Below are positions 4,087 through 55,971 of a stretch of DNA of 64,000 bases, in pieces. Location: contig CAZXPC010000002.1 in assembly GCA_964643135.1 (NCBI GenBank), positions 9,049-73,048 of the forward strand, read 5' to 3'. Under the pieces are notes generated by a model, which was not told the DNA's origin, made no database searches, and worked only from the letters and a program-made list of their open reading frames with translations. The position numbers and the translations under genes are program-made. The stretch is from an uncultured Candidatus Saccharibacteria bacterium. GTDB taxonomy: Bacteria; Patescibacteriota; Minisyncoccia; UBA6257; Colwellbacteraceae. How positions within the stretch are numbered: the stretch's first letter is position 1; each line of letters opens with the position of its first letter.

Positions 4087-4557
4087 ATGAGAAATCTTCA
4101 AGTTAGATCAATAATATCTCTAGCGATTTTTCACTTTGTTTTCGTATTGATTATTGTCGGTTTGGTTAGCATCGTTTTAGGCCTTTTCTCAATAGCAACT
4201 GCTATTATCGAGGCGTGGCTAAATAATCTACTTGGATTTGATGCATCTTCTTTGGTTGAGGTTTCTTTATCTGTTCTCGTTGGTGTTATGATTTCGACTC
4301 AAGTCATGGGCAAGAGGGTCGTGATAAAAGAACCGCGTAAACTTGCGGTTTTTTCTACGGTCTGCTTGCTGCTGTTACTAATTGGATTACTATCGGCAGA
4401 GTTTTTGACTGAAGGATTTTTCCCCATGCAATTGGGTTTTTGGATATATATTGTAGCAGGAGTAATTTCTTTTTATGTTTTTAGTGAAATATTTTTAAGG
4501 CAGCAGTCGAAAAAGCAGCTTATTAGTCTGTCAGAGACGCCTTCACTAAGGCCTTAA
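4087..4557 (+). CDS. hypothetical membrane protein
   Basis: 156 aa, four hydrophobic segments, AT-rich. Located between pyrG 3' copies 3 and 2. Confidence 0.55.
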   Translation: MRNLQVRSIISLAIFHFVFVLIIVGLVSIVLGLFSIATAIIEAWLNNLLGFDASSLVEVSLSVLVGVMISTQVMGKRVVIKEPRKLAVFSTVCLLLLLIGLLSAEFLTEGFFPMQLGFWIYIVAGVISFYVFSEIFLRQQSKKQLISLSETPSLRP

Positions 4558-4650
4558 AAAGCGGGTGAGGTTTTAGAGGTCTGGATTTGAATTCGGGGAT
4601 GAGCCGTCGGAGCTTCGCTCCTCCTTCAAAACCCTCGGTTTTGAACATCT
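4524..4650 (-). pseudogene. PyrG C-terminal fragment (copy 2 of pyrG 3' end)
   Basis: Minus-strand translation ...RRLIPEFKSRPLKPHPLFKALVKASLTD* resembles the CTP synthase C-terminus. Lies ~190 bp downstream of the intact pyrG stop. Confidence 0.6.
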
Positions 4651-4719
4651 GGCTGTTGACCAGATTCCGACACGGGGAAACGCACGCCTTTCCCCGACCC
4701 CCTTTGACGGCCCACCCCT

Positions 4720-6402
4720 TTATTTTTGTTTGATGCTGGCTCTCACAAAGGCCTTGAACAGTGGATTAGGTCTGAGAGGTCTGGAGGTAAATTCGGGGTG
4801 GGCCTGGGTCCCTACAAAAAACGGGTGGATTTTTCTGGGTAGTTCCATAAATTCCATGAGGCGTTTGTTGGGGGACTCGCCGGAGAAAACTACGCCGCCT
4901 TTTTCTAAGGTCTCTATATATTGCGGGTTAACTTCGTAGCGATGGCGGTGGCGTTCGGTGATATGTGATGCGCCATAAGCCTCGCGCACAATTGTGCCGG
5001 GTTTTAAGTTGGCCGGGTATGAGCCGAGGCGCATTGTTGCCCCATAATCTTTGTTATTCATTTTCTCAATTTGTTCTGGCAGGATGTCGATAATTGGGTT
5101 TTTGGTTTTTGGGTTCACCTCGGTTGTGTGGGAGTCTTTGAGACCCAAAACATTGCGGGCGTATTCAACAGCGGCGAGCTGCATGCCGTAACAAAGGCCG
5201 AGGTAGGGGATCTTATTTTCTCGGCAATAGCGGATGACGTTGATTTTGCCTTCGACTCCGCGCGCGCCGAAGCCGCCGGGCACGATTATGCCATCAAACT
5301 TATCCAAACTCTTAAGATTTTTCATCGTCCTTCCAGCCGCTGACCCGTAGGCGTCAGCATTAACTGACTCGAAGTCGTTGGAGCTTAGCCATTCAATGAC
5401 CGGAATTGCCTTTTCTGAATAGGCGGCGTGTTTCACGGCTTCGATTACAGATATGTATGAGTCAGAGAGCATAAAGCTGCCGGTCGCGAAATATTTGCCC
5501 ACAATGCCGATTTTAACTTGGCGTTGTTTGCGGCCGGCTTCTTCAATTGAATTGATTAACCCCCGCCAGTCGTGGCCATCTTTCTTTTTCGTCCTCAATC
5601 CAAGTGTTTCCATTACGATTTTATCCACCTTTTCTTCTTTGAAGATCTCCGGCAGGTCATAGATGTTTTTGACGTTGGGCGCTGAGATTACATTTTCCTG
5701 GCGGACGTTGCAGTTGAAAGCAATTTTCTCTTTGCGTTTGTCGTCGAGTGAAGTCTTGGCGCGGGCTAAGATCATATCCGGCTGCAGCCCAACGCTGTTT
5801 AACGAACGCACGGCGTATTGAGTCGGCTTGGTTTTTAGTTCTTGGTCCTCGCCTTGAGAGGGGAGGTAGCTTACGAGTGTTAAAAAGACCGAGTGAGGGT
5901 CTTGGAGTTTCAAAATACGCACGGCTTCCAAGAAAAGCATGTTTTGATACTCGCCGACTGTGCCGCCGATTTCGGTAATTACAACGTCAGCCGATGCTTT
6001 CCTCGCGGCATTCTTGAGTCGGGCAATAACTTCCAGCGGAATGTGCGGCACCACTTCGACGCACTTGCCGTCATATTCAAGATTGCGTTCTTTCTGAATG
6101 ACGTGCAGGTAGACTGAGCCGGTTGTCATATAGTTGGCTCTAGTTAGGTCGACATCTAAGAAGCGTTCGTAGTTGCCCATGTCTTGGTCGGTTTCCAGGC
6201 CGTCGTCTAACACAAAAACCTCACCGTGTTCGGTGGGGTTCATGGTCCCGGCATCAACGTTGATGTAGGGGTCGATTTTAATGGCGGTGACGTTGAGGCC
6301 GTGGAATTTGAGGAGGCGGCCGATCGCGGCTGAGGCGGTGCCTTTGCCGACGCCCGACATTACTCCGCCGACGATAAAGATGTAAGAAGTTTTGTGCGGC
6401 AC
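4720..6402 (-). CDS. pyrG: CTP synthase
   Basis: 560 aa; N-terminal synthetase domain (GGVMSGVGKGTASAAIGRLLK), C-terminal glutamine amidotransferase domain (GLCYGMQ, HPEF). Confidence 0.95.
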   Translation of the reverse strand: MPHKTSYIFIVGGVMSGVGKGTASAAIGRLLKFHGLNVTAIKIDPYINVDAGTMNPTEHGEVFVLDDGLETDQDMGNYERFLDVDLTRANYMTTGSVYLHVIQKERNLEYDGKCVEVVPHIPLEVIARLKNAARKASADVVITEIGGTVGEYQNMLFLEAVRILKLQDPHSVFLTLVSYLPSQGEDQELKTKPTQYAVRSLNSVGLQPDMILARAKTSLDDKRKEKIAFNCNVRQENVISAPNVKNIYDLPEIFKEEKVDKIVMETLGLRTKKKDGHDWRGLINSIEEAGRKQRQVKIGIVGKYFATGSFMLSDSYISVIEAVKHAAYSEKAIPVIEWLSSNDFESVNADAYGSAAGRTMKNLKSLDKFDGIIVPGGFGARGVEGKINVIRYCRENKIPYLGLCYGMQLAAVEYARNVLGLKDSHTTEVNPKTKNPIIDILPEQIEKMNNKDYGATMRLGSYPANLKPGTIVREAYGASHITERHRHRYEVNPQYIETLEKGGVVFSGESPNKRLMEFMELPRKIHPFFVGTQAHPEFTSRPLRPNPLFKAFVRASIKQK

Positions 6403-6766: not shown

Positions 6767-7345
6767 ATGGCCAATAAAGACATTCTCGTAATTGATATCG
6801 AGACCAAAAACAGCTTTGCCGACGTGGGCGGCCAGCACAACCTGAGGAATTTAGACGCCTCGCTGATTTGTGCTTATTCATACAATCAAGACAAGTATTA
6901 CTTAATCCGCGAGGGCAAATTCCACGAAATTTCCGACATGCTGCAAAACGCGGGCTTAATTGTCGGCTTCAGCATCAACCGCTTTGATTTGCCGGTCATG
7001 AATAAATATTACAAATTTAATTTAATGAGTTTGCCGCGCCTGGATTTACTGGATGAGATTGAAAATGCTCATGGCCGCCGGATTAGCCTAGACTTGCTTG
7101 CCAACGCCAACCTGGGCTATGGCAAGACCGGCCACGGCTTAGACGCGATCGAATATTATAAAAAAGGCGACTGGGAAGCGCTTGAGAAGTATTGCCAGCA
7201 AGATGTGAAGGTAACCAAGGAGCTTTACGACTTAGCCAAAAAACAAAAACATCTGCTTGTACCGCAGAAGTGGAATGCCAATCATGTGAAAGTTGAGTTG
7301 GATATTCAGGATGTCCTGATGACCTCGCCGAATACTTTGTTCTAG
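6767..7345 (+). CDS. DEDD-family 3'-5' exonuclease (RNase H-like, PolB-exonuclease-related)
   Basis: ILVIDIETKN (Exo I), GFSINRFDLPVM (Exo II), YCQQDVKVTKELY (Exo III). Start taken at MANKD, preceded by TAGAAT 8 nt upstream. Confidence 0.7.
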   Translation: MANKDILVIDIETKNSFADVGGQHNLRNLDASLICAYSYNQDKYYLIREGKFHEISDMLQNAGLIVGFSINRFDLPVMNKYYKFNLMSLPRLDLLDEIENAHGRRISLDLLANANLGYGKTGHGLDAIEYYKKGDWEALEKYCQQDVKVTKELYDLAKKQKHLLVPQKWNANHVKVELDIQDVLMTSPNTLF

Positions 7346-7379
7346 ATCATTGACAGAGGATAAAAGGCGACCAGATCTC

Positions 7380-8250
7380 AGTTGTTTAGGCTGGGACAAG
7401 GTCGCAGTGATGCGGAACTTAATCCGCTTGGAGTGGCGGCGTCGGATAGGGATTTGAACCCTCGTTCAGGACCCTATTATGTCGGGAAAGATTTGTTCGC
7501 ATGCCTCAGGGCGCTTCAGTTCCACTCGTGCGGGTGATGCTTGCCGCATTTGTAGAACCTTGGCATTCCCGTCTCGGCCTCATAAGCTTACTAGGGCGCT
7601 CCGCGAATACGACCTAAAGACACCACGTGGGCCGGGATATGAACCTCCCGCACCTAATCTACTGGAACCATAGATCCATGATGTGCCGTATTCGTCCTGC
7701 ATACTCCCGTTCGGCAAATTCAGCCTACTTTGCATGCTCGCTCATCCGTCCGTCATCGCGGCTCTCATACCGGGGCATAAGTTCCCTTCAAAACCAGGAA
7801 ACGAACCCCTTCGGAGAATTGCCTTCCCCTGAGACCCAAATGGTAATCTCATAGAGCCGCACTTTTCGCCCTACTATCCTTGCTATCCAATTTCCTGACT
7901 AGTCCTACTTCTCTACGCCCTGGTCGGTCCCCATGGTGAAGGGTGACAATGAGAAGTGGTAGGCCCACGAAAGGGTAGGACGTTTAGGTAAATTGGCTTC
8001 GCACGTAGCCGAGCGATTAGTTCCATCTTGATTCACCGAGCCTTACCGGCCCTCTATCAAGACTCTCTATATCCTTAGCCTTCCGGTGGGTAACCCTCAG
8101 GTTTGAGCCGAGGCACCGGTGCTTTTGGCTGAACTATCGACGCCAGTTGGTAAAGAGCTGTCCGTCGGCTTGCTTCGGGAAAACTCTTCGTTGCATCTTC
8201 ATTCTAGCATGGGTCACTCCTCAGTCAATGAATTGAAAAGAGGCTGGTTG
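7380..8250. other. 870-bp ORF-free region; candidate structured RNA or decayed element
   Basis: No ORF above 75 aa on either strand in an otherwise dense genome. Minus strand carries a tRNA-like T-arm/acceptor/CCA fragment (rc of 7437-7465: GAGGGTTCAAATCCCTATCCGACGCCGCCA). Confidence 0.3.
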
Positions 8251-28342: not shown

Positions 28343-28414
28343 GCTCTCGTCGTTCAACGGATAGGACGCCTCCCTGCGAAGGAGGAAATTGAGGTTCAAT
28401 TCCTCATGAGAGCA
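28343..28414 (+). tRNA. tRNA-Arg (anticodon GCG)
   Basis: GCTCTCG/TGAGAGC acceptor, anticodon arm CCTCC-CTGCGAA-GGAGG, T-arm TGAGG-TTCAATT-CCTCA. Confidence 0.85.
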
Positions 28415-28452
28415 CAACTCAGGGCGAGGTTCCAGAGACCTGGCTTCTTACC

Positions 28453-29079
28453 TTGTCGAGGCGCTCTGGAAACCTACCTTTCAAGGGCGCAAAACGAGAA
28501 AACAAAGCAGCGAAATTAGTAGAATCGCTAGTTTTGGATTATCATGATTACATGACACCAGAAATAAAAATTTGGCGAACAATAAAAATTGGTACTTTTG
28601 AGAATAAGAACTCGCTCCTCAGTGGACTTCTAAAAAGAAGTGTCTTGATCGAAAATCAGGCGAAAGAATTAATTGATCAAATTGACTTAGCTTCTACTAC
28701 CATTGAATTAGACCTTGTCGTAAAATCTGCTTCTGAGTTAGGTTTAACGAGTGGTCAAGAAGTCGAATACAGATGGGTTTACGATAAAGCAAAGTCAATC
28801 GGTCTTGAAGTGTGTCCTGGAGAAGTTGGACCTCAGCTCTGTTTGCAACAGCTACCACCGGAAGATAACCGATTTGTGAACTGGGTTCTGAGGATAGCCA
28901 TGAATGTTACGCCAGGAGGGAATATTTTCACTTTCATGGATGGAAGGTATTTATACTACAATTCTGCGGGATTAATACTTGGTATAGATAGCAATGATAT
29001 GATGCCCGGATCGGGATCAGGTGCTCTGGAGCCAGTGAAGCCAGAAACCAAATTTGTTTTTGTTAAACCAAGGAAATAA
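28453..29079 (+). CDS. hypothetical protein
   Basis: 208 aa, no motif recognised. Confidence 0.5.
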   Translation: MSRRSGNLPFKGAKRENKAAKLVESLVLDYHDYMTPEIKIWRTIKIGTFENKNSLLSGLLKRSVLIENQAKELIDQIDLASTTIELDLVVKSASELGLTSGQEVEYRWVYDKAKSIGLEVCPGEVGPQLCLQQLPPEDNRFVNWVLRIAMNVTPGGNIFTFMDGRYLYYNSAGLILGIDSNDMMPGSGSGALEPVKPETKFVFVKPRK

Positions 29080-29083
29080 GTAA

Positions 29084-29377
29084 TCGAATCATCCGACTAT
29101 CGGATTCAATGGCGATCAGGCATGGGTTAGGAAACGCTTCACCATCGCTCATGAAATCGGCCATCTTCTGATGGGTCATACCTGTAATGGTATTGATGGG
29201 GAAGATAACGGTGAGACCGAAGCGGATTCTTTTGCTGCGGAACTTTTAATTCCACTCGAAGCTGTGAAGGCTGATTTTGCGCGCCAACCCGATTTAGAAA
29301 AGCTTGCAGAAAAATATATCGTGAGCAAAGACGCTCTCTGCATCCATCTCATGAACTGCAGGGTTCTGAAGTATTGA
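29084..29377 (+). pseudogene. 5'-truncated ImmA/IrrE-family zinc metallopeptidase gene
   Basis: In-frame ...KRFTIAHEIGHLLMGH (HEXXH) with no in-frame start upstream; only the C-terminal ~95 aa remain. Confidence 0.6.
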
Positions 29378-29391
29378 GATAAATTCTTATT

Positions 29392-30456
29392 CTACAGCTT
29401 CATATACCTCGTGCCTCTCCCTCTCCCGATTCTCTTAACCTTACCGATCTCAACCAACCGCTCGAGTGATTTACGAACGGATGGCATGATAATGCCAGTC
29501 GCTTTGACGATTTCGCCAGGGGCCGCTTCTTTAACTTTAGAAAGATATTCCAAAACCTCGTTCTGCTTTGGCGACATAGTGTCTTCATGGGTTTCTTTCT
29601 CCACGAGCGCGATCGCTTTCGTCGCCTGTTCTTTAACGACTGAAAGGAAATAGTTTAGCCACGGAGCAATGGTTTGATCCTTCGTCTTAAAAGTTGCCTG
29701 TGATGAACGAAGGGCGAGATAGTATTGATCCTTGCGCTGTTCGATAATCTGTTCGTGTGAAACATATTGAGCGAACGAGTAGCCAGAGCGAAGTAAAAGC
29801 AAATTTGTTAAGATGCGCGAAAGACGCCCGTTGCCATCTTCGAACGGATGGATTTTAAGAAACTCGATAATGAAGTTGGCGATTATGAGCAACGGATGGA
29901 AACGTTCTTTGGCGAAGGCCTCTTGTGTCCACTCAACGAGCTCAGTCATTTCTTTCGGCGTGAGATAGGCTGGAGTTGTTTCGAACATTATTTTCGCTAC
30001 CTTGCCGTCCGGGCCAAGAACCCCAACCATATTTTCTTTGTGTTTGTATTCGCCGCGATGTAGATCGTCTTTGCTTGAATATTTCAAAAGTTCCTTATGG
30101 AGCGAAGTGATGACGCTCTCACGCAATGGCAGATCTTTATAGCTGTCGAAAACATTTTTAAGAGTTTCGAGGTATCCTTGCACTTCCTGCGAATCGCGAT
30201 CAGCAAATTTCTGAATCGAGAGTCCCTGCATAATCTTTTTAACTTCCTCATCAGAGAGCTTAGAGCCTTCGATACGAGTTGAAGCACCGGCTGAGGTAAC
30301 GAGCACTGATTTTCGTAAGCTAGTTATCGCTTGCGGTGTCATTCGCAGGCCCACACGAAAGACGCCCCTAATTTCATCTATCGCTGCCAAAAAAGCTACG
30401 ATATGAGGGTCGGGATTCTTAATTCTATAATCAAATTTTCGGCTGTTGTTTTCCAT
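29392..30456 (-). CDS. Fic-family protein (AMPylase/Doc-like) with C-terminal winged-helix
   Basis: HPFEDGNGRLSR Fic motif. Confidence 0.85.
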   Translation of the reverse strand: MENNSRKFDYRIKNPDPHIVAFLAAIDEIRGVFRVGLRMTPQAITSLRKSVLVTSAGASTRIEGSKLSDEEVKKIMQGLSIQKFADRDSQEVQGYLETLKNVFDSYKDLPLRESVITSLHKELLKYSSKDDLHRGEYKHKENMVGVLGPDGKVAKIMFETTPAYLTPKEMTELVEWTQEAFAKERFHPLLIIANFIIEFLKIHPFEDGNGRLSRILTNLLLLRSGYSFAQYVSHEQIIEQRKDQYYLALRSSQATFKTKDQTIAPWLNYFLSVVKEQATKAIALVEKETHEDTMSPKQNEVLEYLSKVKEAAPGEIVKATGIIMPSVRKSLERLVEIGKVKRIGRGRGTRYMKL

Positions 30457-30957
30457 ATTTGCTGATATTTATTACGTTATCGGATTTTATCAGTTTTTAT
30501 CAGATAAGGCAAATCCCAAAAGTTCGGGCTGATAAAGTTGTGTAAATTGGATTTTGGTTAGTAAATATGAGGGTTTTCTAGAAAATAGCCATTTCCACAT
30601 GGCCCAAAATTTTGGGTTTGTTTGGGTTTTTGGATGGACATGAGACGCCCTAAAAAACCTAGAAAAGTGTCTCATTTGTATCATTTTGATCCAAACCGAA
30701 CACGAAAGACAGGTCTTAATGTGTGTTCGGTTTGTTCTGTTCGGAGGGTGACCGAGGTGCTTCGTCCGCTGGAAAGCCCTCTCAAAATCTCCTATACTTC
30801 TTGAATAGCCCAGCGACCGAGGTCCTTCAATCAGAAGGTGAAATCGACCCTCAAAAACGTTGTCTGGGCCTCAACTATAAAGGTTGGAGACCGTGGAAGG
30901 GCACAAATTGAGGCGATCCATAAAATGGATCGAGTCAATTTGTGCTATGAGGAATTA

Positions 30958-31074
30958 ACGGGAAAGGGGTCGGGAAAACGGAAGTTTTCCCGTGGCGGAA
31001 AAGCGCCGATAGGCGTGAGCTAAAACCGCTGGGTTTTAGGGAGGAGCGGAGCGACGACGTTCAATTCCTCATGA
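30958..31074 (+). repeat. tRNA-linked conserved motif plus 16-bp copy of tRNA-Arg 3' end (att-like)
   Basis: ACGGGAAAGGGGTCGGGAAAACGGAAGTTTTCCCGTGGCGGA ... AACCGCTGGGTT ... GTTCAATTCCTCATGA; paralogous to 48738-48847 and rc of 55490-55613. Confidence 0.6.
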
Positions 31075-31130
31075 TCCCTGCAGGGGATTTACTTGTACGT
31101 AGTTCCTACCCAGAGTATTATTTAGAGCAC

Positions 31131-34068: not shown

Positions 34069-34151
34069 ATGATTATTCTAACAAATGAGACGTTCGACAC
34101 TGGTTATACTTGCCGATATCATAATATTCGCCTAAACTTTGTTTACACGTT

Positions 34152-34238
34152 GGAAGCGTGGCTGAGCGGTTTAAAGCAGCATCCTGCTAAGATGTTGTCC
34201 GGGAAACCGGACCGGAGGTTCGAATCCTCCCGCTTCCG
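34152..34238 (+). tRNA. tRNA-Ser (anticodon GCT)
   Basis: GGAAGCG/CGCTTCC acceptor, anticodon loop CTGCTAA, long variable arm TGTCCGGGAAACCGGACC, T-arm GGAGG-TTCGAAT-CCTCC. Confidence 0.9.
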
Positions 34239-34241
34239 CTA

Positions 34242-34280
34242 ATACAAATTTGGCGCCCATTTGGGCGCTTAATTTGTATA
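34242..34280 (+). terminator. long hairpin after tRNA-Ser
   Basis: ATACAAATTTGGCGCCCA-tt-TGGGCGCTTAATTTGTAT. Confidence 0.5.
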
Positions 34281-34351
34281 TCGCGAGGCCAGGATTCGAA
34301 AGCCCGCAGGCAAAATTTCAGCAGATAATTTTGCCGAGGGGCGGTCTGCGA

Positions 34352-34464
34352 GAAATTTCCTGCAGGAAATTTACTTGTAGGCGAATCCTCCCGCTTGAGA
34401 CCGCTGGTTCTGAAAAGCGAGTGTAACGAGCGCGTTCGAATAGCGAAGCGCCTCCCGCTTCCGC
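34352..34464 (+). repeat. att-like unit at tRNA-Ser: shared CCTGCAGGAAATTTACTTGTA box, ACCGCTGG / AGCGAAGCG boxes and two partial copies of the tRNA-Ser 3' end
   Basis: CGAATCCTCCCGCTT (34382-34396) and CCTCCCGCTTCCGC (34451-34464) copy the tRNA-Ser 3' end. CCTGCAGG..ATTTACTTGTA also occurs at 31075-31097. Confidence 0.5.
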
Positions 34465-34508
34465 AAAAAAAAATTAGCCAGAGTTAGATTCGCGCGAGAT
34501 GTGCGTAT

Positions 34509-35228
34509 CTACCTGCTGGCTGCGATCGGCTTGGGCCTGCCTTCGTTGGCCTTCAGGACCGAATGGAACTTCTCGACGTCCCCCGGGACGCTGTCCAGGA
34601 GGAAGCGCTTGAGGTCCTTGTAGGTCTCTTGGTTGGGATCGCCGCGGAGGATCAGCTGAACCCACTCGCCGATGTGATAGTCGGGCAGAGTGGGCGATCC
34701 TTCGAGGAAAGCCGCCGCGAGCCGGACCTGCTGGTCTTGCGTCATCGAGTCGACGACGAAGGGTTTGAAGCGGGTCAGGAACTTGGCGTTCTCGTGTGCG
34801 ATCTCGTCGGGGACGCCGTAGGCGGCCGCAAGAGCGATGAGGCAGATCTTCCGCCGCTGCCACACTGCCTCCGTCTCTTCCGGCGGCCGTTCGCCGTCGT
34901 CGAACTCGTCGCCGGCTGCCATGAGCGCAGAGATCTGCTTCTCGTGGTCGGCGACCATCGTTGCGACGAGAACGTCGATCGGGTTCTTGCGGTATTGCTT
35001 CGGCCTGGTCGCCTCCATCTCAACGAGGCCTTGTACCCTTAGGTCGTCCAAGACCGAGTAGATCTTGGTCCGAGGGACCCTGCTCTCGTTGGCGATGTCA
35101 CGCGCTTCCATCGGTACGGTGGTGCTGAGCACCAAGTAGACTCTTGCCCTGTATTCCGTGAGACCCAGGGCTCTGAGCTTCTCGACCTTCTCCCAAAACT
35201 TGTCAATCGGTATCATTTCGACCCACAT
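34509..35228 (-). CDS. TrmB-family transcriptional regulator (GC-rich, probably acquired)
   Basis: N-terminal wHTH LGLTEYRARVYLVL...ARDIANESRVPRTKIYSVLDDLRVQGLVE; ~60% GC. Confidence 0.6.
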   Translation of the reverse strand: MWVEMIPIDKFWEKVEKLRALGLTEYRARVYLVLSTTVPMEARDIANESRVPRTKIYSVLDDLRVQGLVEMEATRPKQYRKNPIDVLVATMVADHEKQISALMAAGDEFDDGERPPEETEAVWQRRKICLIALAAAYGVPDEIAHENAKFLTRFKPFVVDSMTQDQQVRLAAAFLEGSPTLPDYHIGEWVQLILRGDPNQETYKDLKRFLLDSVPGDVEKFHSVLKANEGRPKPIAASR

Positions 35229-35349: not shown

Positions 35350-35448
35350 ATGGAAAAGAAATCAGCTTGGAAAACTTGCAGCCGCGGACACAAATATAGG
35401 GGAACGGGTCCGTGCCCAATATGCTGGCCGGGAAGGACAAAGAAGTAA
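35350..35448 (+). CDS. 32-aa Cys/His-rich micro-ORF (zinc-ribbon-like), hypothetical
   Basis: [32 protein letters not shown], preceded by TATAAT 14 nt upstream. Confidence 0.25.
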
Positions 35449-35455
35449 TTTTAGA

Positions 35456-52691: not shown

Positions 52692-55490
52692 ATGGAACGG
52701 GGTCCAAGACTAAAAACATCCGAAGAGCTAGCTGAACAGGCAAAATCGGTTTCAGATAGCTTGGGTCAGGAAATTTCTCAACCCTCAAAAAAGAACGAGG
52801 TTTTTAATTTATCTCTCGAAGAAATAAAAGCTAGGTTTCCAAGACGCTACGATATTTATCTGAAAAACCTCAAAGCCAAGAAGGCTGGCAAAGAAATTGA
52901 TCCGGACGAGAAAGAAAAGATGGTTAAATGGCTTATTGTTTTGAATAACCTTGATAAATACATTGAAGCTCATAAATCGGGTGGGGACGTTACTCTACGT
53001 GAGCACCAAATCGGTCCTTTCGAAGCGCTAAGAGATTTTCTTGAAGAAGGAGGGGATGCGGGGCACATCAAACTTCCAACTGGCTCGGGGAAAACAGTTG
53101 TTGGGGCCGAATTCATTGAGGCGACAGGTTTAAAGACTTTAGTGGTTGTCCCAACAAGGACGTTGGTTGGTCAGACCATGGGGCAACTCCAAAAGCATAT
53201 TAAAGGGAGGAAAGTGGGCGCTTATTTTTCAGAACAAAAAGGCTTGACAATGGACGTCGACGTAACGACCTATCAGTCCTTGAAAAACATCGATACCAAG
53301 AAATACGACTTGGTGATTTTTGATGAGGCCCATAAGGCAGAAGGGGAAGATACTGCGAAACTTGTGTCTGAGACTAAATGTATGGTTAAACTTGGCCTGA
53401 CTGCTACGCCCACCAAGAGGACGAGTGAGTTAATGGGTGAAGAAATATATTCGATGCAACTTAGGGATATGATAGAAATTGGAGCCCTTGCTCCATGTCA
53501 GGTTAATCTGGCTAAAGTTAAAAATATTGATACATCGAACGTAACAGTTAATAGGAACGGAGAATATAGCGAAAGCGAGTTGGAAGCCATTTTAAATGTG
53601 CGGCCGGCCAACGAAGCTGCGGTTAAACTATACAAAGAAGGATTCGCCGGCGAAAAGATGATCGCTTTTACTGCTGGGAAATTACATGCTAAAGATTTGT
53701 CAGAACTTTTTAATGCCAGAGGCATAAGAGCGGGATTTATAATTGGCGAGACATCTACTGCTGATAGAGAAGATCTTTTCGCGCGATTTAAGGGTAAAAG
53801 AGTGCTTCGGAATAAAGAAGGCGCAGTGATTGGAGAAGAAATGATTCCGACAGAAGATCAGATTGACGTTTTAATTGGAGCTAGGGTTTTAATCGAAGGT
53901 TTTGATGAGCCTAGGGCCTCAGTCTGCTTCAATATAGTCCCGACTGCCTCTAAAGTTGTTGCTGAGCAAAGGGGCGGCAGAGTTCTAAGAAGGGATGACG
54001 ACAACCCCGGCAAAGAAGCTACTGTGGTTGATTTTGTTTATGAGGGTAAGAATAATAGACAGATATTATTTAGTAGGGTTCTCGGCGGTGCCCGGGTTGG
54101 ATCAGTTGGGAAGTCAGTTTTTGGAGAATCTATTGGTGACAAAGATTATTCGAGAGATAGAGATCAATTCAGAACTAGAGGATTCATTGAAATCGAGGGG
54201 ATAGAATTTATTGTGAATGAGGAAGAGGTTATGAAGGTAGAAAGAAAGATGGATGATGAAGCCTATGATTTTGCCCCTGAAGACTGGAAAACAAACGGCG
54301 GATTGGCGGAAGATATAGGAACCAGTTTCTCAGTTGTTAAAAGGATTGCCGAGAGTGTTCGAGGTGAAAAGCCGGAATGGTTTAGAATTTATAAATTCAA
54401 GGGAGGAAGGGTCGAAGAATATTACAGCCCTGAATTAGTTAAGCTAATCATGGAAGAAGTCCAAGCCAGGGAGGAGGCTCCGGTGGGCTGGAAGACAAAT
54501 GGTTTCGTTGCTAACGTGCTAGATTATGCTCATTCAACGATAAGCAAAATAGCCGATAAATATCGAGTTTCAAATCCAGAATGGTTCAGAAAATACAAGA
54601 TTAAAGCCGGCAGAGTAGAGGAGCATTACGCGCCAGATTTAGTTACCGAAATCAGGCAGGAGCTTGCCTCACGCGAGTTTGCCCCAGAAGGCTGGGTTAC
54701 CAACAAATCGTTATCAAATGAACTTGATGTTGACAAAGGGACTGTCAGGAACAGCGCGAATAGATATCGCGCTGATCATCCCGATATGTTTAGGGTATTT
54801 AAAAATAAACTTGGGCAAATTACAGAGCACTATTCGCCCGAATTAGCCTTGATGGTTAAAAGAGACATCTCAACTCGCGAGAACCGTCCCGAAGGTTGGA
54901 TGACTAACGGAGAGCTCTTTAATGAGCTCGATGTCGATGAGACTACGGTAAAAAATCGAGCCGATCGATATCGAGCCTCACATCCGGATTGGTTTAGGGT
55001 TTATAAGAATAAGACAAATAAGCCCACCGAACACTATTCTCCTGAATTGGCAGCAATCATCAAAAGAGATATTGTGTCATATGAATATGCTCCCGAAGGA
55101 TGGCACATAACCAATGAATTAGCCGAAGGACTTGGCGTTTCAGCGCGGTCGATTCAGAATGAAGCCGAACGACACAGATTCGCTCACCCTGATTGGTTTA
55201 AAAAGTACAAAGTAAGAATGGGACGTGTTTTAGAGCACTATTCTCCAGAGCTTATCTCAATTATTAAGGCTAAGTTTATGGGTCAAGAATTTGCTCCGGC
55301 AGGATGGAGGCCCAATGCACCGCTCGCGTTAGAGCTGGGATCTACCCCATATACTGTAAAGAAGATAGCTGAGAGGTATAGGGCCGCAAACCCAGCATGG
55401 TTTAGACAATATAAGCCTAAAACAGGACCGATAACAGAGTACTACCATCCAGATTTGGTTGAGAAAATTAAAGAAGCTTTAGGAAAATAG
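52692..55490 (+). CDS. SF2 (DEAD/DEAH, ResIII-like) helicase with six C-terminal ~68-aa tandem repeats
   Basis: LPTGSGKT (motif I), DLVIFDEAHK (motif II), helicase C domain. From residue ~520, six repeats of AP.GW.TN..L...L.......K..A.RYR...P.WFR.YK.K.G...EHYSPEL...I. Confidence 0.8.
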   Translation: MERGPRLKTSEELAEQAKSVSDSLGQEISQPSKKNEVFNLSLEEIKARFPRRYDIYLKNLKAKKAGKEIDPDEKEKMVKWLIVLNNLDKYIEAHKSGGDVTLREHQIGPFEALRDFLEEGGDAGHIKLPTGSGKTVVGAEFIEATGLKTLVVVPTRTLVGQTMGQLQKHIKGRKVGAYFSEQKGLTMDVDVTTYQSLKNIDTKKYDLVIFDEAHKAEGEDTAKLVSETKCMVKLGLTATPTKRTSELMGEEIYSMQLRDMIEIGALAPCQVNLAKVKNIDTSNVTVNRNGEYSESELEAILNVRPANEAAVKLYKEGFAGEKMIAFTAGKLHAKDLSELFNARGIRAGFIIGETSTADREDLFARFKGKRVLRNKEGAVIGEEMIPTEDQIDVLIGARVLIEGFDEPRASVCFNIVPTASKVVAEQRGGRVLRRDDDNPGKEATVVDFVYEGKNNRQILFSRVLGGARVGSVGKSVFGESIGDKDYSRDRDQFRTRGFIEIEGIEFIVNEEEVMKVERKMDDEAYDFAPEDWKTNGGLAEDIGTSFSVVKRIAESVRGEKPEWFRIYKFKGGRVEEYYSPELVKLIMEEVQAREEAPVGWKTNGFVANVLDYAHSTISKIADKYRVSNPEWFRKYKIKAGRVEEHYAPDLVTEIRQELASREFAPEGWVTNKSLSNELDVDKGTVRNSANRYRADHPDMFRVFKNKLGQITEHYSPELALMVKRDISTRENRPEGWMTNGELFNELDVDETTVKNRADRYRASHPDWFRVYKNKTNKPTEHYSPELAAIIKRDIVSYEYAPEGWHITNELAEGLGVSARSIQNEAERHRFAHPDWFKKYKVRMGRVLEHYSPELISIIKAKFMGQEFAPAGWRPNAPLALELGSTPYTVKKIAERYRAANPAWFRQYKPKTGPITEYYHPDLVEKIKEALGK

Positions 55491-55613
55491 CTCCGCAGGT
55501 AGGGCACTTCGCTATCTCACTGCTCGGCTAAAGCCTGCGCTTTGAAACCCAGCGGTTTCAATACTTCCGCCACGGGAAAACTCCCGTTTTCCCGACCCCT
55601 TTCCCGTTCGATC
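55490..55613 (-). repeat. tRNA-linked conserved motif plus 15-bp copy of tRNA-Asn 3' end (att-like, minus orientation)
   Basis: rc reads GGGATCGAACGGGAAAGGGGTCGGGAAAACGGGAGTTTTCCCGTGGCGGA ... AAACCGCTGGGTTT ... GATAGCGAAGTG + CCCTACCTGCGGAGC. The core copy overlaps the helicase stop codon. Confidence 0.6.
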
Positions 55614-55670
55614 CCACTGGCGGTAAATACTAAAAAATATCTGACAGATTCAGATATTTTCTAGTATATG

Positions 55671-55971
55671 CTCCGCAGGTAGGGATCGAACCTACGACCA
55701 TCGCCTTACACTTGTCCTATCGTTGCCGTTAGGGGTGGACTATATCATATCCCGTTTCTTACCGGGACCGAGGCGCTTCCGCGCAACTGTTTTGCGAGTA
55801 CTCCCACTAGGGGATAGTCTCTACACCTTCCGAACGAATTGTCCGGCTTGGCTCGGGATTGCCCATTTAAATTAAAAAGGGTTTCCCCGAATTCACCTCG
55901 TTTTTCAAACTAGATTGCTCTAGTAAGCTGCCTTCTGACAGGGCGCCGCTCTACCGCTGAGCTACTGCGGA
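55671..55971 (-). tRNA. tRNA-Asn (anticodon GTT) interrupted by a group I intron
   Basis: Exons 55938-55971 and 55671-55708 splice to TCCGCAGTAGCTCAGCGGTAGAGCGGCGCCCTGT|TAAGGCGATGGTCGTAGGTTCGATCCCTACCTGCGGAG, closely matching a bacterial tRNA-Asn (anticodon loop CTGTTAA). A hairpin (55634-55660) follows the gene. Confidence 0.8.
55709..55937 (-). ncRNA. group I intron (IC3-like) in the tRNA-Asn anticodon loop, no ORF
   Basis: ~229 nt between anticodon positions 35/36. Contains GAAGGTGTAGAGACTA and CGAGCCAAGC core elements as in the Azoarcus tRNA-Ile intron (recalled from memory). U at -1 can pair with intron GCAG (P1); intron ends in G. Confidence 0.7.

Follow-up and report, generated by a model that had tools for sequence, protein, structure and literature searches.

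A compound locus behind a tRNA-Ser gene suggests a widespread family of small, target-mirroring integration modules in Patescibacteria

We analyzed a stretch of 64,000 nucleotides (hereafter the window) from an uncultured Candidatus Saccharibacteria bacterium (contig CAZXPC010000002.1 of assembly GCA_964643135.1, positions 9,049 to 73,048), in which a tRNA-Ser(GCU) gene is followed by two partial copies of its own 3' end. Our favored reading, which we hold with a little less than even confidence, is that two modules are compounded in the interval running to the end of the second copy (34240-34464), both belonging to a family of small integration modules that mirror their target and are widespread in Patescibacteria. 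In such a module, the parts succeed one another in the order T (the gene end), X (a hairpin, rarely kilobases of cargo), rcT (a reverse complement of T), a core of about 90 nt (about 90-100) made of covarying hairpins, and T' (the displaced T). The reading builds on this architecture, on the conservation and covariation of the cores, on the asymmetry between the two strands, on the many different gene ends at which the modules stand, and on displaced gene ends of foreign origin that were once functional. The module is apparently an undescribed and widespread structured integration module (or RNA) of Patescibacteria.

Results

Anatomy of the tRNA-Ser Locus

A first-pass annotation of the window had noticed, behind tRNA-Ser, a long hairpin, a box with a near-copy after a tRNA-Arg repeat, and two partial copies of the tRNA end, and all the features it described are present, at or within 2 nt of where it had placed them. 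The parts of the locus are as follows:

34152-34239 (+): tRNA-Ser(GCU) gene (ARAGORN; Rfam tRNA, 58 bits)
34219-34239 (+): T, the target sequence, from the T-loop to the tRNA's 3' end
34242-34279 (+): X, a long hairpin of 38 nt (9+7 pairs, -22.9 kcal/mol)
34283-34300 (+): rcT, GCGAGGCCAGGATTCGAA, the reverse complement, with imperfections, of T-loop, T-stem, and acceptor 3' strand of tRNA-Ser
34301-34381 (+): variant core, private to the source genome (z of -5.7 for the RNA fold of the whole unit, -5.0 as DNA)
34309-34335 (+): hairpin P1' of the variant core
34343-34381 (+): long hairpin P2' of the variant core, enclosing the box and a 20-nt palindrome
34359-34379 (+): the box of the first-pass annotation, CCTGCAGGAAATTTACTTGTA
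34382-34396 (+): T copy 1, CGAATCCTCCCGCTT, a 15-nt exact copy of 34221-34235 (blastn, 15/15)
34397-34450 (+): 3' half of a canonical element (column-by-column alignment with other genomes)
34397-34412 (+): hairpin P2, GAGACC-GCTG-GTTCTG
34399-34410 (+): GACCGCTGGTTC
about 34416-34433 (+): P3
34434-34441 (+): T-loop-like heptamer motif GTTCGAAT
34442-34450 (+): mini-hairpin AGCGAAGCG (GCGAAGC)
34451-34464 (+): T copy 2 (T'), CCTCCCGCTTCCGC, a 14-nt exact copy of 34226-34239

The tRNA gene is preceded by a promoter-like site (34094-34122), and the hairpin X behind it looks like a terminator, with an inner stem and a T-rich tail detected by a terminator scan. X also forms the apex of a fold-back in which T, X, and rcT (34214-34302) make up one hairpin when folded as DNA (z = -4.97). 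In DNA folds, rcT is able to pair either with the tRNA 3' end (z = -4.97) or with T copy 1 (z = -5.04), which stops 4 nt short of the tRNA end and, by pairing with rcT, closes the variant core. T copy 2 corresponds to the 3' strand of the T-stem, the 3' strand of the acceptor, and the tRNA end, and is directly followed by a run of nine A (34465-34473). Positions 34240-34464 are without a credible gene, the sole open reading frame (ORF) being a mechanical one of 58 codons (34250-34426).

The box CCTGCAGGAAATTTACTTGTA has a sole other copy in the window (31077-31097, two mismatches, where 0.00 is expected by chance), and the two copies differ by compensatory changes within a hairpin (AAATTTCC-TGCA-GGAAATTT vs. 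ATCCC-TGCA-GGGGAT). It is private to the source genome: a search of a metagenome collection with CTGCAGGNNATTTACTTGTA returned 29 matches, all of them chance matches in unrelated coding sequence, and no relatives. The hairpin P2' that carries the box also holds a perfect 20-nt palindrome, AAATTTCCTGCAGGAAATTT (34353-34372). Positions 34397-34464 align with the 3' halves of elements in other genomes (L096, L114, and L081) and with a further unit of the window at 55.5 kb, the closest match being L096, an element behind tRNA-Asp. The mini-hairpin AGCGAAGCG, which the first-pass annotation took for an insertion into a tRNA fragment, is in fact a conserved piece of this repeated element in other genomes. 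The conserved 5' half of the canonical element (the box GGGAAAGGGGTCGGGAAAAC and hairpin P1) is absent here, since R1, a covariance model built from 22 cores, gave no match between 34283 and 34397 even with its filters off.

Judged by these alignments, the tRNA-Ser locus is a private variant module fused to the 3' half of a canonical copy, which agrees with the compound, serial or nested arrangement first proposed for it. The tRNA may already have been followed by a canonical module when one private to this genome integrated there, ahead of the older one, which would then have lost its 5' half, and such a course of events would explain both the two partial tRNA copies and the shuffled boxes. 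The first-pass annotation suggested looking for a distal boundary further downstream; no additional copy of the tRNA-Ser end was found in the rest of the window.

A Covarying Core at Many Gene Ends

A scan for the 19-mer of the core, covering one genome per prokaryotic species, matched at least 120 genome stretches, nearly all labeled Patescibacteria. Among the matches listed (loci of other genomes are given by L numbers here), the labels comprise Saccharibacteria, Parcu-/Paceibacteria, Moranii-, Jorgensen-, Colwell- and Berkelbacteria, and Kazan, together with a few Bdellovibrionales or Bathyarchaeia labels that are unconfirmed. The model R1 recovered 109 copies in 100 of these loci, and 97.4% of the cells are paired in the resulting alignment, with double changes at 14 of the 17 pairs, a result that none of 500 shuffles reached. 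All eight pairs of P2 covary and no slid register comes close; this alignment is fitted to the model, and the raw variants of the P2 stem show the same covariation. A coding function of the core was rejected on the ground that the pattern of substitutions is that of base pairing and not of codons. Of 54 copies, 50 have a tRNA-sense strand that folds better than the complementary one (p = 1e-9). Selection therefore acts on a single-stranded form of that strand, be it RNA or DNA. The att-like (attachment-site-like) regions of the Ser and Arg loci fold far better than shuffled sequence (z of -5.7 and -8.5, respectively). The linker tetranucleotide before GGA also seems to covary with the P2 loop (alignment A2; e.g., window 48784-48808), with GCGG accompanying GCTG, GTGG accompanying GCAA, TAGG accompanying GAGA, and GAGG or AAGG accompanying GTG, which hints at a pseudoknot or an alternative helix.

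The arms around the core are made of the local target. A same-strand tRNA can be found upstream, within 160 nt, of 73 of the 126 exact-motif copies, with every isotype represented, and 54 copies have an exact repeat of at least 12 nt of the tRNA end after the core (median 17 nt; direct repeats of 12-23 nt). T' starts at the boundary between T-loop and T-stem (at G53 in one subfamily) and ends at or just past the tRNA end. T, X, and rcT form one hairpin in 69 of 73 loci (median z = -8), as they do in all three units of the window that are directly linked to a tRNA (DNA z of -5.0, -6.5, and -9.2). Alternatively, rcT pairs with the displaced T' and thereby closes the core, the cognate rcT/T' duplex being more stable than non-cognate ones (-19.3 vs. 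-13.4 kcal/mol). Units are uniform in size, 52 of the 54 measured ones spanning 116-216 nt with all parts kept, and modules of the family extend over about 120-230 nt.

Roughly one copy in four stands elsewhere than at a tRNA 3' end, and in each of these cases the arms are made of local sequence. Such copies adjoin protein genes, either at their 3' ends (pyrG in the window, rpsI in L035, and a uvrB-like gene in L085) or at the 5' ends of genes on the opposite strand (typA in three genomes, murD in L093), or they stand directly before the 5' end of a tRNA (L059, L064, L087, and L100) or at a palindromic repeat of one Paceibacteria group. Tandem units occur in five loci (L003, L020, L022, L076, and L098). 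Other types of core share the T-X-rcT-core-T' layout, for instance at about 90-230 of L100, behind tRNA-Tyr, which, with the placement of some canonical cores at tRNA 5' ends, indicates that the family is broader than the model R1. The sequence AGCGAAGCGC, seen as inserted at Ser by the first-pass annotation, recurs as a family module in L081, L086, L096, L114, and the unit at 55.5 kb of the window.

Other Units in the Window

Four canonical copies are found in the window, after tRNA-Arg, tRNA-Cys, an intron-bearing tRNA, and pyrG. R1 matches them at 55537-55616 on the minus strand (99.5 bits), 48738-48817 (86.7 bits), 30949-31020 (68.5 bits), and 4638-4719 on the minus strand (26.5 bits, E = 2e-5), and all four have the conserved 5' box GGGAAAGGGGTCGGGAAAAC with P1. 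A shared box, ACCGCTGG(G)TT, leads from the Ser and Arg loci to the units after tRNA-Cys and, on the minus strand, after the intron-containing tRNA. These units have a common order, GGGAAAGGGGTCGGGAAAAC-loop-GTTTTCCCG, then a ..AACC-GNNG-GGTT.. hairpin, the GAGCGAAGCG motif, and a copy of the preceding tRNA 3' end. The idea that the Ser, Arg, and other units belong to one family is borne out. Their parts are the following:

28343-28415 (+): tRNA-Arg(GCG), target of the Arg element (ARAGORN)
30901-31074 (+): canonical Arg element (R1 68.5 bits; fold z = -8.5), with X hairpin 30901-30945, rcT 30947-30960, core 30949-31055, and T' 31056-31074 (16 nt exact)
31077-31097 (+): second copy of the variant box, an apical P2' hairpin and TTTACTTGTA
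48707-48847 (+): canonical Cys element, directly after tRNA-Cys (R1 86.7 bits), with X 48708-48731, rcT about 48735-48748, core 48738-48817, and T' 48826-48847 (22 nt exact)
55490-55669 (-): canonical element after the intron-containing tRNA (R1 99.5 bits), with X, rcT, core 55537-55616, AGCGAAGTG, and T' 55504-55490
4720-6360 (-): pyrG, CTP synthase (Pfam CTP_synth_N)
4523-4719 (-): divergent canonical element at the 3' end of pyrG (R1 26.5 bits, E = 2e-5), with rcT 4719-4708, core 4638-4719, and a displaced copy of the last 25 pyrG codons, 4597-4523

The Arg locus has the order opposite to that of the Ser locus: the complete canonical element comes first, its T' is cut after 16 nt, and what follows (31077-31097) is, judging from the box, the 3' part of a variant element, truncated where it meets the Arg element, with a degenerate tRNA-Arg-like end beyond it. 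Both loci look like junctions of two modules, and they are consistent with a history, which we infer, of serial integration at the same target and partial loss of the older copy. The Arg element lies 2.5 kb away from its tRNA, with an islet in between. The Cys unit is placed between the tRNA-Cys and tRNA-Leu genes of one cluster (48707-48872), and its T-X-rcT segment folds as DNA with a z of -6.5, against -9.2 for that of the unit at 55.5 kb; the pyrG element directly adjoins the pyrG stop codon. As to the intron-bearing tRNA, an Rfam group I intron (61 bits) at 55716-55951 on the minus strand interrupts a tRNA gene at about 55975-55670 (-) that ARAGORN did not call, and a trial joining of the exons gave a doubtful tRNA call only.

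Displaced Gene Ends and Cargo

At pyrG, the nature of the displaced end can be read in its codons. The last 25 codons remain in frame after the core and end in a stop, and over 22 codons aligned with those of the resident gene, 9 are identical, 7 differ by synonymous changes only, and 6 by conservative changes, with 12 of the 19 differences at third positions and an AGC/TCT serine pair in the synonymous set. Since this divergence is mostly synonymous, both versions must once have been functional gene ends in different lineages, and the displaced end is therefore not a target-site duplication made at insertion. The uvrB-like end of L085 shows the same pattern, with 26 identical nucleotides followed by diverged coding sequence. 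That displaced ends of protein genes differ mostly synonymously indicates that foreign DNA was integrated.

X is kilobases long in two loci, the tRNA-Arg islet of the window and L010. In L010, behind tRNA-Asn, a 6.5-kb defence islet lies between two whole-element copies of 274 nt that are 97% identical (353-626 and 7252-7525), and it encodes GmrSD-HNH, an EcoRI-like methylase, an SDH protease, AbiEii/AbiEi, and two ORFs of no known family. The tRNA-Arg islet (28416-30900, 2.5 kb) holds a 208-aa ORF of no known family, whose GC content at third codon positions (GC3) is 0.335, together with an ImmA/IrrE-like fragment and a Fic/DOC protein with a C-terminal helix-turn-helix (HTH) domain, and looks like toxin or defence cargo.

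Searches for an Enzyme and for Known Relatives

Within 3.5 kb of the 126 listed copies, there is no recurrent integrase, transposase, HUH nuclease, or reverse transcriptase, and when the 673 neighboring ORFs of all loci were clustered, the only recurring families were housekeeping ones. The 39 window ORFs that were scanned, which are most of those with at least 150 aa, include none of these enzymes either, and no recombinase was detected with Pfam, NCBIfam, and PHROGs in the ORFs of no known family of the Arg islet and L010. As for noncoding relatives, Rfam 15 at its gathering score returned only tRNAs and one group I intron from the window, and permissive Rfam scans of the Arg, Ser, and Cys units gave matches at chance level only. 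IMG/VR viral contigs scanned for the core 19-mer had 0 matches, blastn detected none in 50,697 phage records or in 72,556 plasmid records, and literature searches by topic and by sequence string brought up nothing relevant in the searchable literature.

Discussion

How the Modules May Integrate

Our best guess as to mechanism likens the module, by analogy, to the forked-hairpin attP of the CTX phage or to the attC sites of integrons. The mobile form would be a single-stranded or circular molecule of the composition X-rcT-core-T, in which a stem between rcT and T would restore the target in double-stranded form, looped by the conserved core, and this core might be what an enzyme encoded elsewhere takes hold of. 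By exchanging strands inside T, this enzyme could then insert the module, and the upstream gene would stay intact, its missing end being supplied by the module while the old end is pushed downstream. Integration through such a CTX-like folded site would account for the mirror copy of the target, the strand asymmetry, the missing enzyme gene, the tandem arrays, and the restored gene end.

Several points weigh against this scenario. With no recombinase, HUH nuclease, or reverse transcriptase near the copies or in the scanned ORFs of the window, the enzyme is hypothetical, and one sequence-specific recombinase cannot explain that all tRNA isotypes as well as protein-gene ends are used as targets. 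The scenario does not account for the re-templating of rcT and T for new targets, nor for the recognition of arbitrary targets. Neither a free circular or single-stranded form nor an empty site was seen, and for the Ser locus the deletion has to be assumed. The pyrG unit has an rcT that is an exact match to the upstream copy but needs two G.U/G.T pairs to match the displaced one, when the simplest CTX-like crossover predicts the opposite, unless the displaced copy mutated later. Lastly, exact conservation of 19 nt across very distant lineages and the tRNA-sense orientation would suit a functional RNA as well.

Competing Explanations

A more far-reaching interpretation, which we regard as rather unlikely yet worth stating, is that the modules represent a new class of programmable mobile element or guide-like nucleic acid, whose core recruits an enzyme of the candidate phyla radiation (CPR) and whose antisense and sense arms set the site of action by pairing with both strands of the target. 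If this were true, any conserved gene end would be addressable by re-templating the arms.

It is less probable still that the units are structured noncoding RNA genes or tRNA-trailer RNAs, in which the stem between rcT and T' imitates the top half of a tRNA (acceptor and T-arm) and the core binds a conserved factor. Such RNAs could be cut out by tRNA-processing enzymes, or act in tRNA maturation, as decoys, or as antisense to the gene end, and the repeats would be functional parts of the RNA rather than footprints. The covarying helices, the preference for the tRNA-sense strand, and the identity of the 19-mer in remote CPR lineages all fit this idea, as do the loci in which the stem spans the full 12 bp of T-stem and acceptor (e.g., L006 and L011), the copies directly before a tRNA 5' end (L059, L064, L087, and L100) or between two clustered tRNAs (Cys and Leu), and a recurrent GUGAGAU/AUCGAAC pairing that would give tandem G.A pairs. 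However, tRNA and element usually have a terminator-like hairpin between them, and rcT is not preceded by a conserved promoter; in many copies, such as L020, L021, and L094, rcT covers the T-loop only; no Rfam family matches; and tRNA mimicry is impossible for the many copies at protein-gene ends, where the predominance of synonymous divergence in the displaced ends needs DNA integration of foreign sequence.

The first-pass annotation saw the units as a family of integration scars, that is, as attL/attR remnants of tyrosine-integrase islands left at tRNA genes by serial integration and near-total deletion, with the shared boxes as conserved arm sequences of related attP sites. Its link between the family and the integration of foreign DNA stands, but we find it improbable that these are decayed att scars of ordinary integrase elements. 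Intact tRNAs with direct repeats of their 3' end (exact copies of 15 and 14 nt at Ser), gene ends replaced by foreign versions, and defence or toxin islets in two loci are all to be expected from such islands, whose integrases reportedly tend to target the T-loop and 3' end of tRNAs. Yet no integrase lies within 3.5 kb of any of the listed copies, and the units are complete, covarying modules in at least 120 mostly Patescibacteria stretches, of a uniformity in size and parts that random decay would not yield. What has been retained is, moreover, strand-specific in structure and shows compensatory changes, classical att sites have no use for a reverse-complemented target copy, and the 210-nt interval at Ser contains no gene.

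Least probable of all is a nonautonomous retroelement comparable to short interspersed elements (SINEs), with a reverse transcriptase encoded elsewhere, whose RNA would anneal by its 3' T segment to the nicked target and prime cDNA synthesis, for although 5' truncation would produce what is seen at Ser (the canonical 3' half only) and at Arg (then the variant 3' part only), although the direct repeats of 12-23 nt resemble target-site duplications, and although the element lies in the sense of a highly transcribed gene, the displaced gene ends are diverged orthologous versions rather than duplicates made by insertion, X and rcT are locus-specific within the supposed insert, L003 and L076 are truncated at their 3' side instead, and no reverse transcriptase was found nearby. 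Four further ideas were also considered and rejected: a tmRNA in permuted or two-piece form (none is called by ARAGORN, and copies are numerous within a genome), an intron in the T-loop (nothing is missing from the upstream tRNA), the template and variable repeats of diversity-generating retroelements (no adenine-specific differences and no reverse transcriptase), and the ends of IS200/IS605, IS110 bridge RNA, or TnpB guide RNA systems (a long target duplication is not expected, and no such genes are present).

Comparison with Known Systems

Coming back to integration through a folded site, the closest parallel is offered by the CTX phage, whose single-stranded genome has two dif-like sites in inverted orientation, some 90 bp from each other, through which it folds into a forked, target-mimicking hairpin (PMC3089051). 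CTX attP and integrative mobile elements exploiting Xer (IMEX) share with the module the order of target copy, body, inverted target copy, spacer of ~90 nt, and target copy, the pairing of the inverted copies into a hairpin of ~150 nt that mimics the double-stranded target, the lack of a recombinase encoded by the element, and the occurrence of tandem arrays (PMC3089051). At Ser and in the family, rcT and T' likewise flank a core of ~90-100 nt and cognate stems are favored, as in the inverted-site hairpin of CTX attP. The module differs in that its targets are neither dif nor one sequence but any tRNA 3' end and several protein-gene ends, in that its spacer is its most conserved part with covarying hairpins of its own, in that its body is usually just a hairpin and not a phage genome, and in that neither a Rep gene nor Xer sites were seen with it.

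Integron attC sites, too, are strand-specific, folded, noncoding recombination sites of about 60-140 nt, recognized by structure, repeated many times per genome, and served by an enzyme encoded elsewhere. Their design is the reverse of that seen here, since attC has constant R''/R' core sites (RYYYAAC/GTTRRRY) and a variable center, whereas the stem of the module is derived from the target and different at every locus and its center is constant; the modules also come without an integron platform or IntI and are scattered at gene ends, not gathered in a cassette array.

Genomic islands at tRNA genes include satellite-type islands without an integrase, such as tycheposons. Like the modules, tRNA-gene islands insert at the T-loop or 3' end, restore the gene end, leave a displaced partial tRNA as a direct repeat, integrate serially, and in some copies carry defence or toxin cargo. 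Unlike them, the modules have a usual unit that is gene-free and 120-220 nt long, no integrase was found for them, they possess a conserved structured core and a reverse-complement copy of the target, and they also use protein-gene ends. The resemblance to miniature inverted-repeat transposable elements and REPIN-type repeats (short, multicopy, hairpin-forming, noncoding, and presumably dependent on an enzyme encoded once elsewhere) is limited by the inverted repeat of the module, which copies the local target rather than being a constant terminal repeat, and by its direct repeats, which, at 12-23 nt or more, are long and may represent diverged orthologous gene ends instead of duplications. 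Altogether, we would place the module with gene-end-targeting integrative elements that have folded attachment sites, and there is a real chance that it is categorically new.

Neighboring Genes

Immediately beyond the tRNA-Ser locus lies a gene that the first-pass annotation regarded as probable foreign cargo:

34509-35228 (-): gene for a TrmB-type winged-HTH protein (Pfam PF01978, E = 6e-17, residues 17-80)

Its product has the N-terminal winged-helix domain shared by TrmB family regulators (PF01978, 61.7 bits against a cut-off of 25.6); the C-terminal effector domain of that family was not detected, Pfam finding neither the TrmB sugar-binding domain nor any other family in the C-terminal 150 residues, and the score against the NCBIfam TrmB/TrmBL1 equivalog is 44 bits for a cut-off of 650. 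A composition check upheld the gene's atypical, GC-rich character. With a GC content of 0.611 and a GC3 of 0.829, compared with 0.472 +/- 0.054 and 0.533 +/- 0.095 over 44 window ORFs, no other ORF of the window is as rich in GC (z of about +2.6, and of about +3.1 for GC3), and the GC-rich block (about 34475-35225) coincides with it.

Two Logan contigs of the same organism, both ending within the repeat, are the only places where an identical protein occurs, and the other best homologs reach only E = 1e-6, over the HTH domain. In both homolog neighborhoods that were checked there are archaeal genes (e.g., PCNA, primase, and RpoL), and the nearest relatives found, with 56-62% identity in a flanking Hint-domain protein, share no gene order with the window. 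By the homologs of this Hint-domain protein, the source organism is Paceibacteria-like. The gene was likely acquired horizontally, and it is probably a separate gene of archaeal type. Its foreign composition and its weak relatives in archaeal contexts thus support one half of the original proposal, but not that it is cargo of the Ser unit: the gene stands beyond the last repeat (34451-34464), outside the tRNA-bounded interval, and as no distal repeat exists in the window, its link to the module is one of adjacency only. Both Logan contigs with this gene (L121 and L122), which are independent short-read contigs, end inside the 20-nt palindrome of P2', which indicates that the module breaks assemblies.

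Further along, an AT-rich gap between the TrmB-like gene and the gene of a 1117-aa surface protein with fn3 repeats and a PG-binding domain holds a 32-codon ORF (35351-35449, +) for a Cys/His-rich peptide (C..H...CPIC) that matches no family. Between 38865 and 42562, a LexA-like repressor gene stands beside a Dam-type methyltransferase and a DndB-like gene, with a GC content down to about 0.37-0.38, and this segment is probably another acquired defence block.

Significance

The tiny-celled Patescibacteria also have tiny genomes, in which few mobile elements are believed to reside. The module described here is found behind four of the six tRNA genes of a 64-kb window, in addition to pyrG, and in more than 100 genomes from distant lineages, where it marks the entry points of foreign gene ends and sometimes of defence genes. 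On a practical level, it breaks short-read assemblies, as seen from the two Logan contigs that end inside it, and it will cause confusion when tRNA loci are annotated. Should base pairing of its arms fix the target, the module would be a natural case of nucleic-acid-templated site choice without a linked enzyme gene; if it acts as an RNA, it would be an RNA of wide distribution, as yet unclassified and associated with the tRNA genes of a quarter of bacterial diversity.

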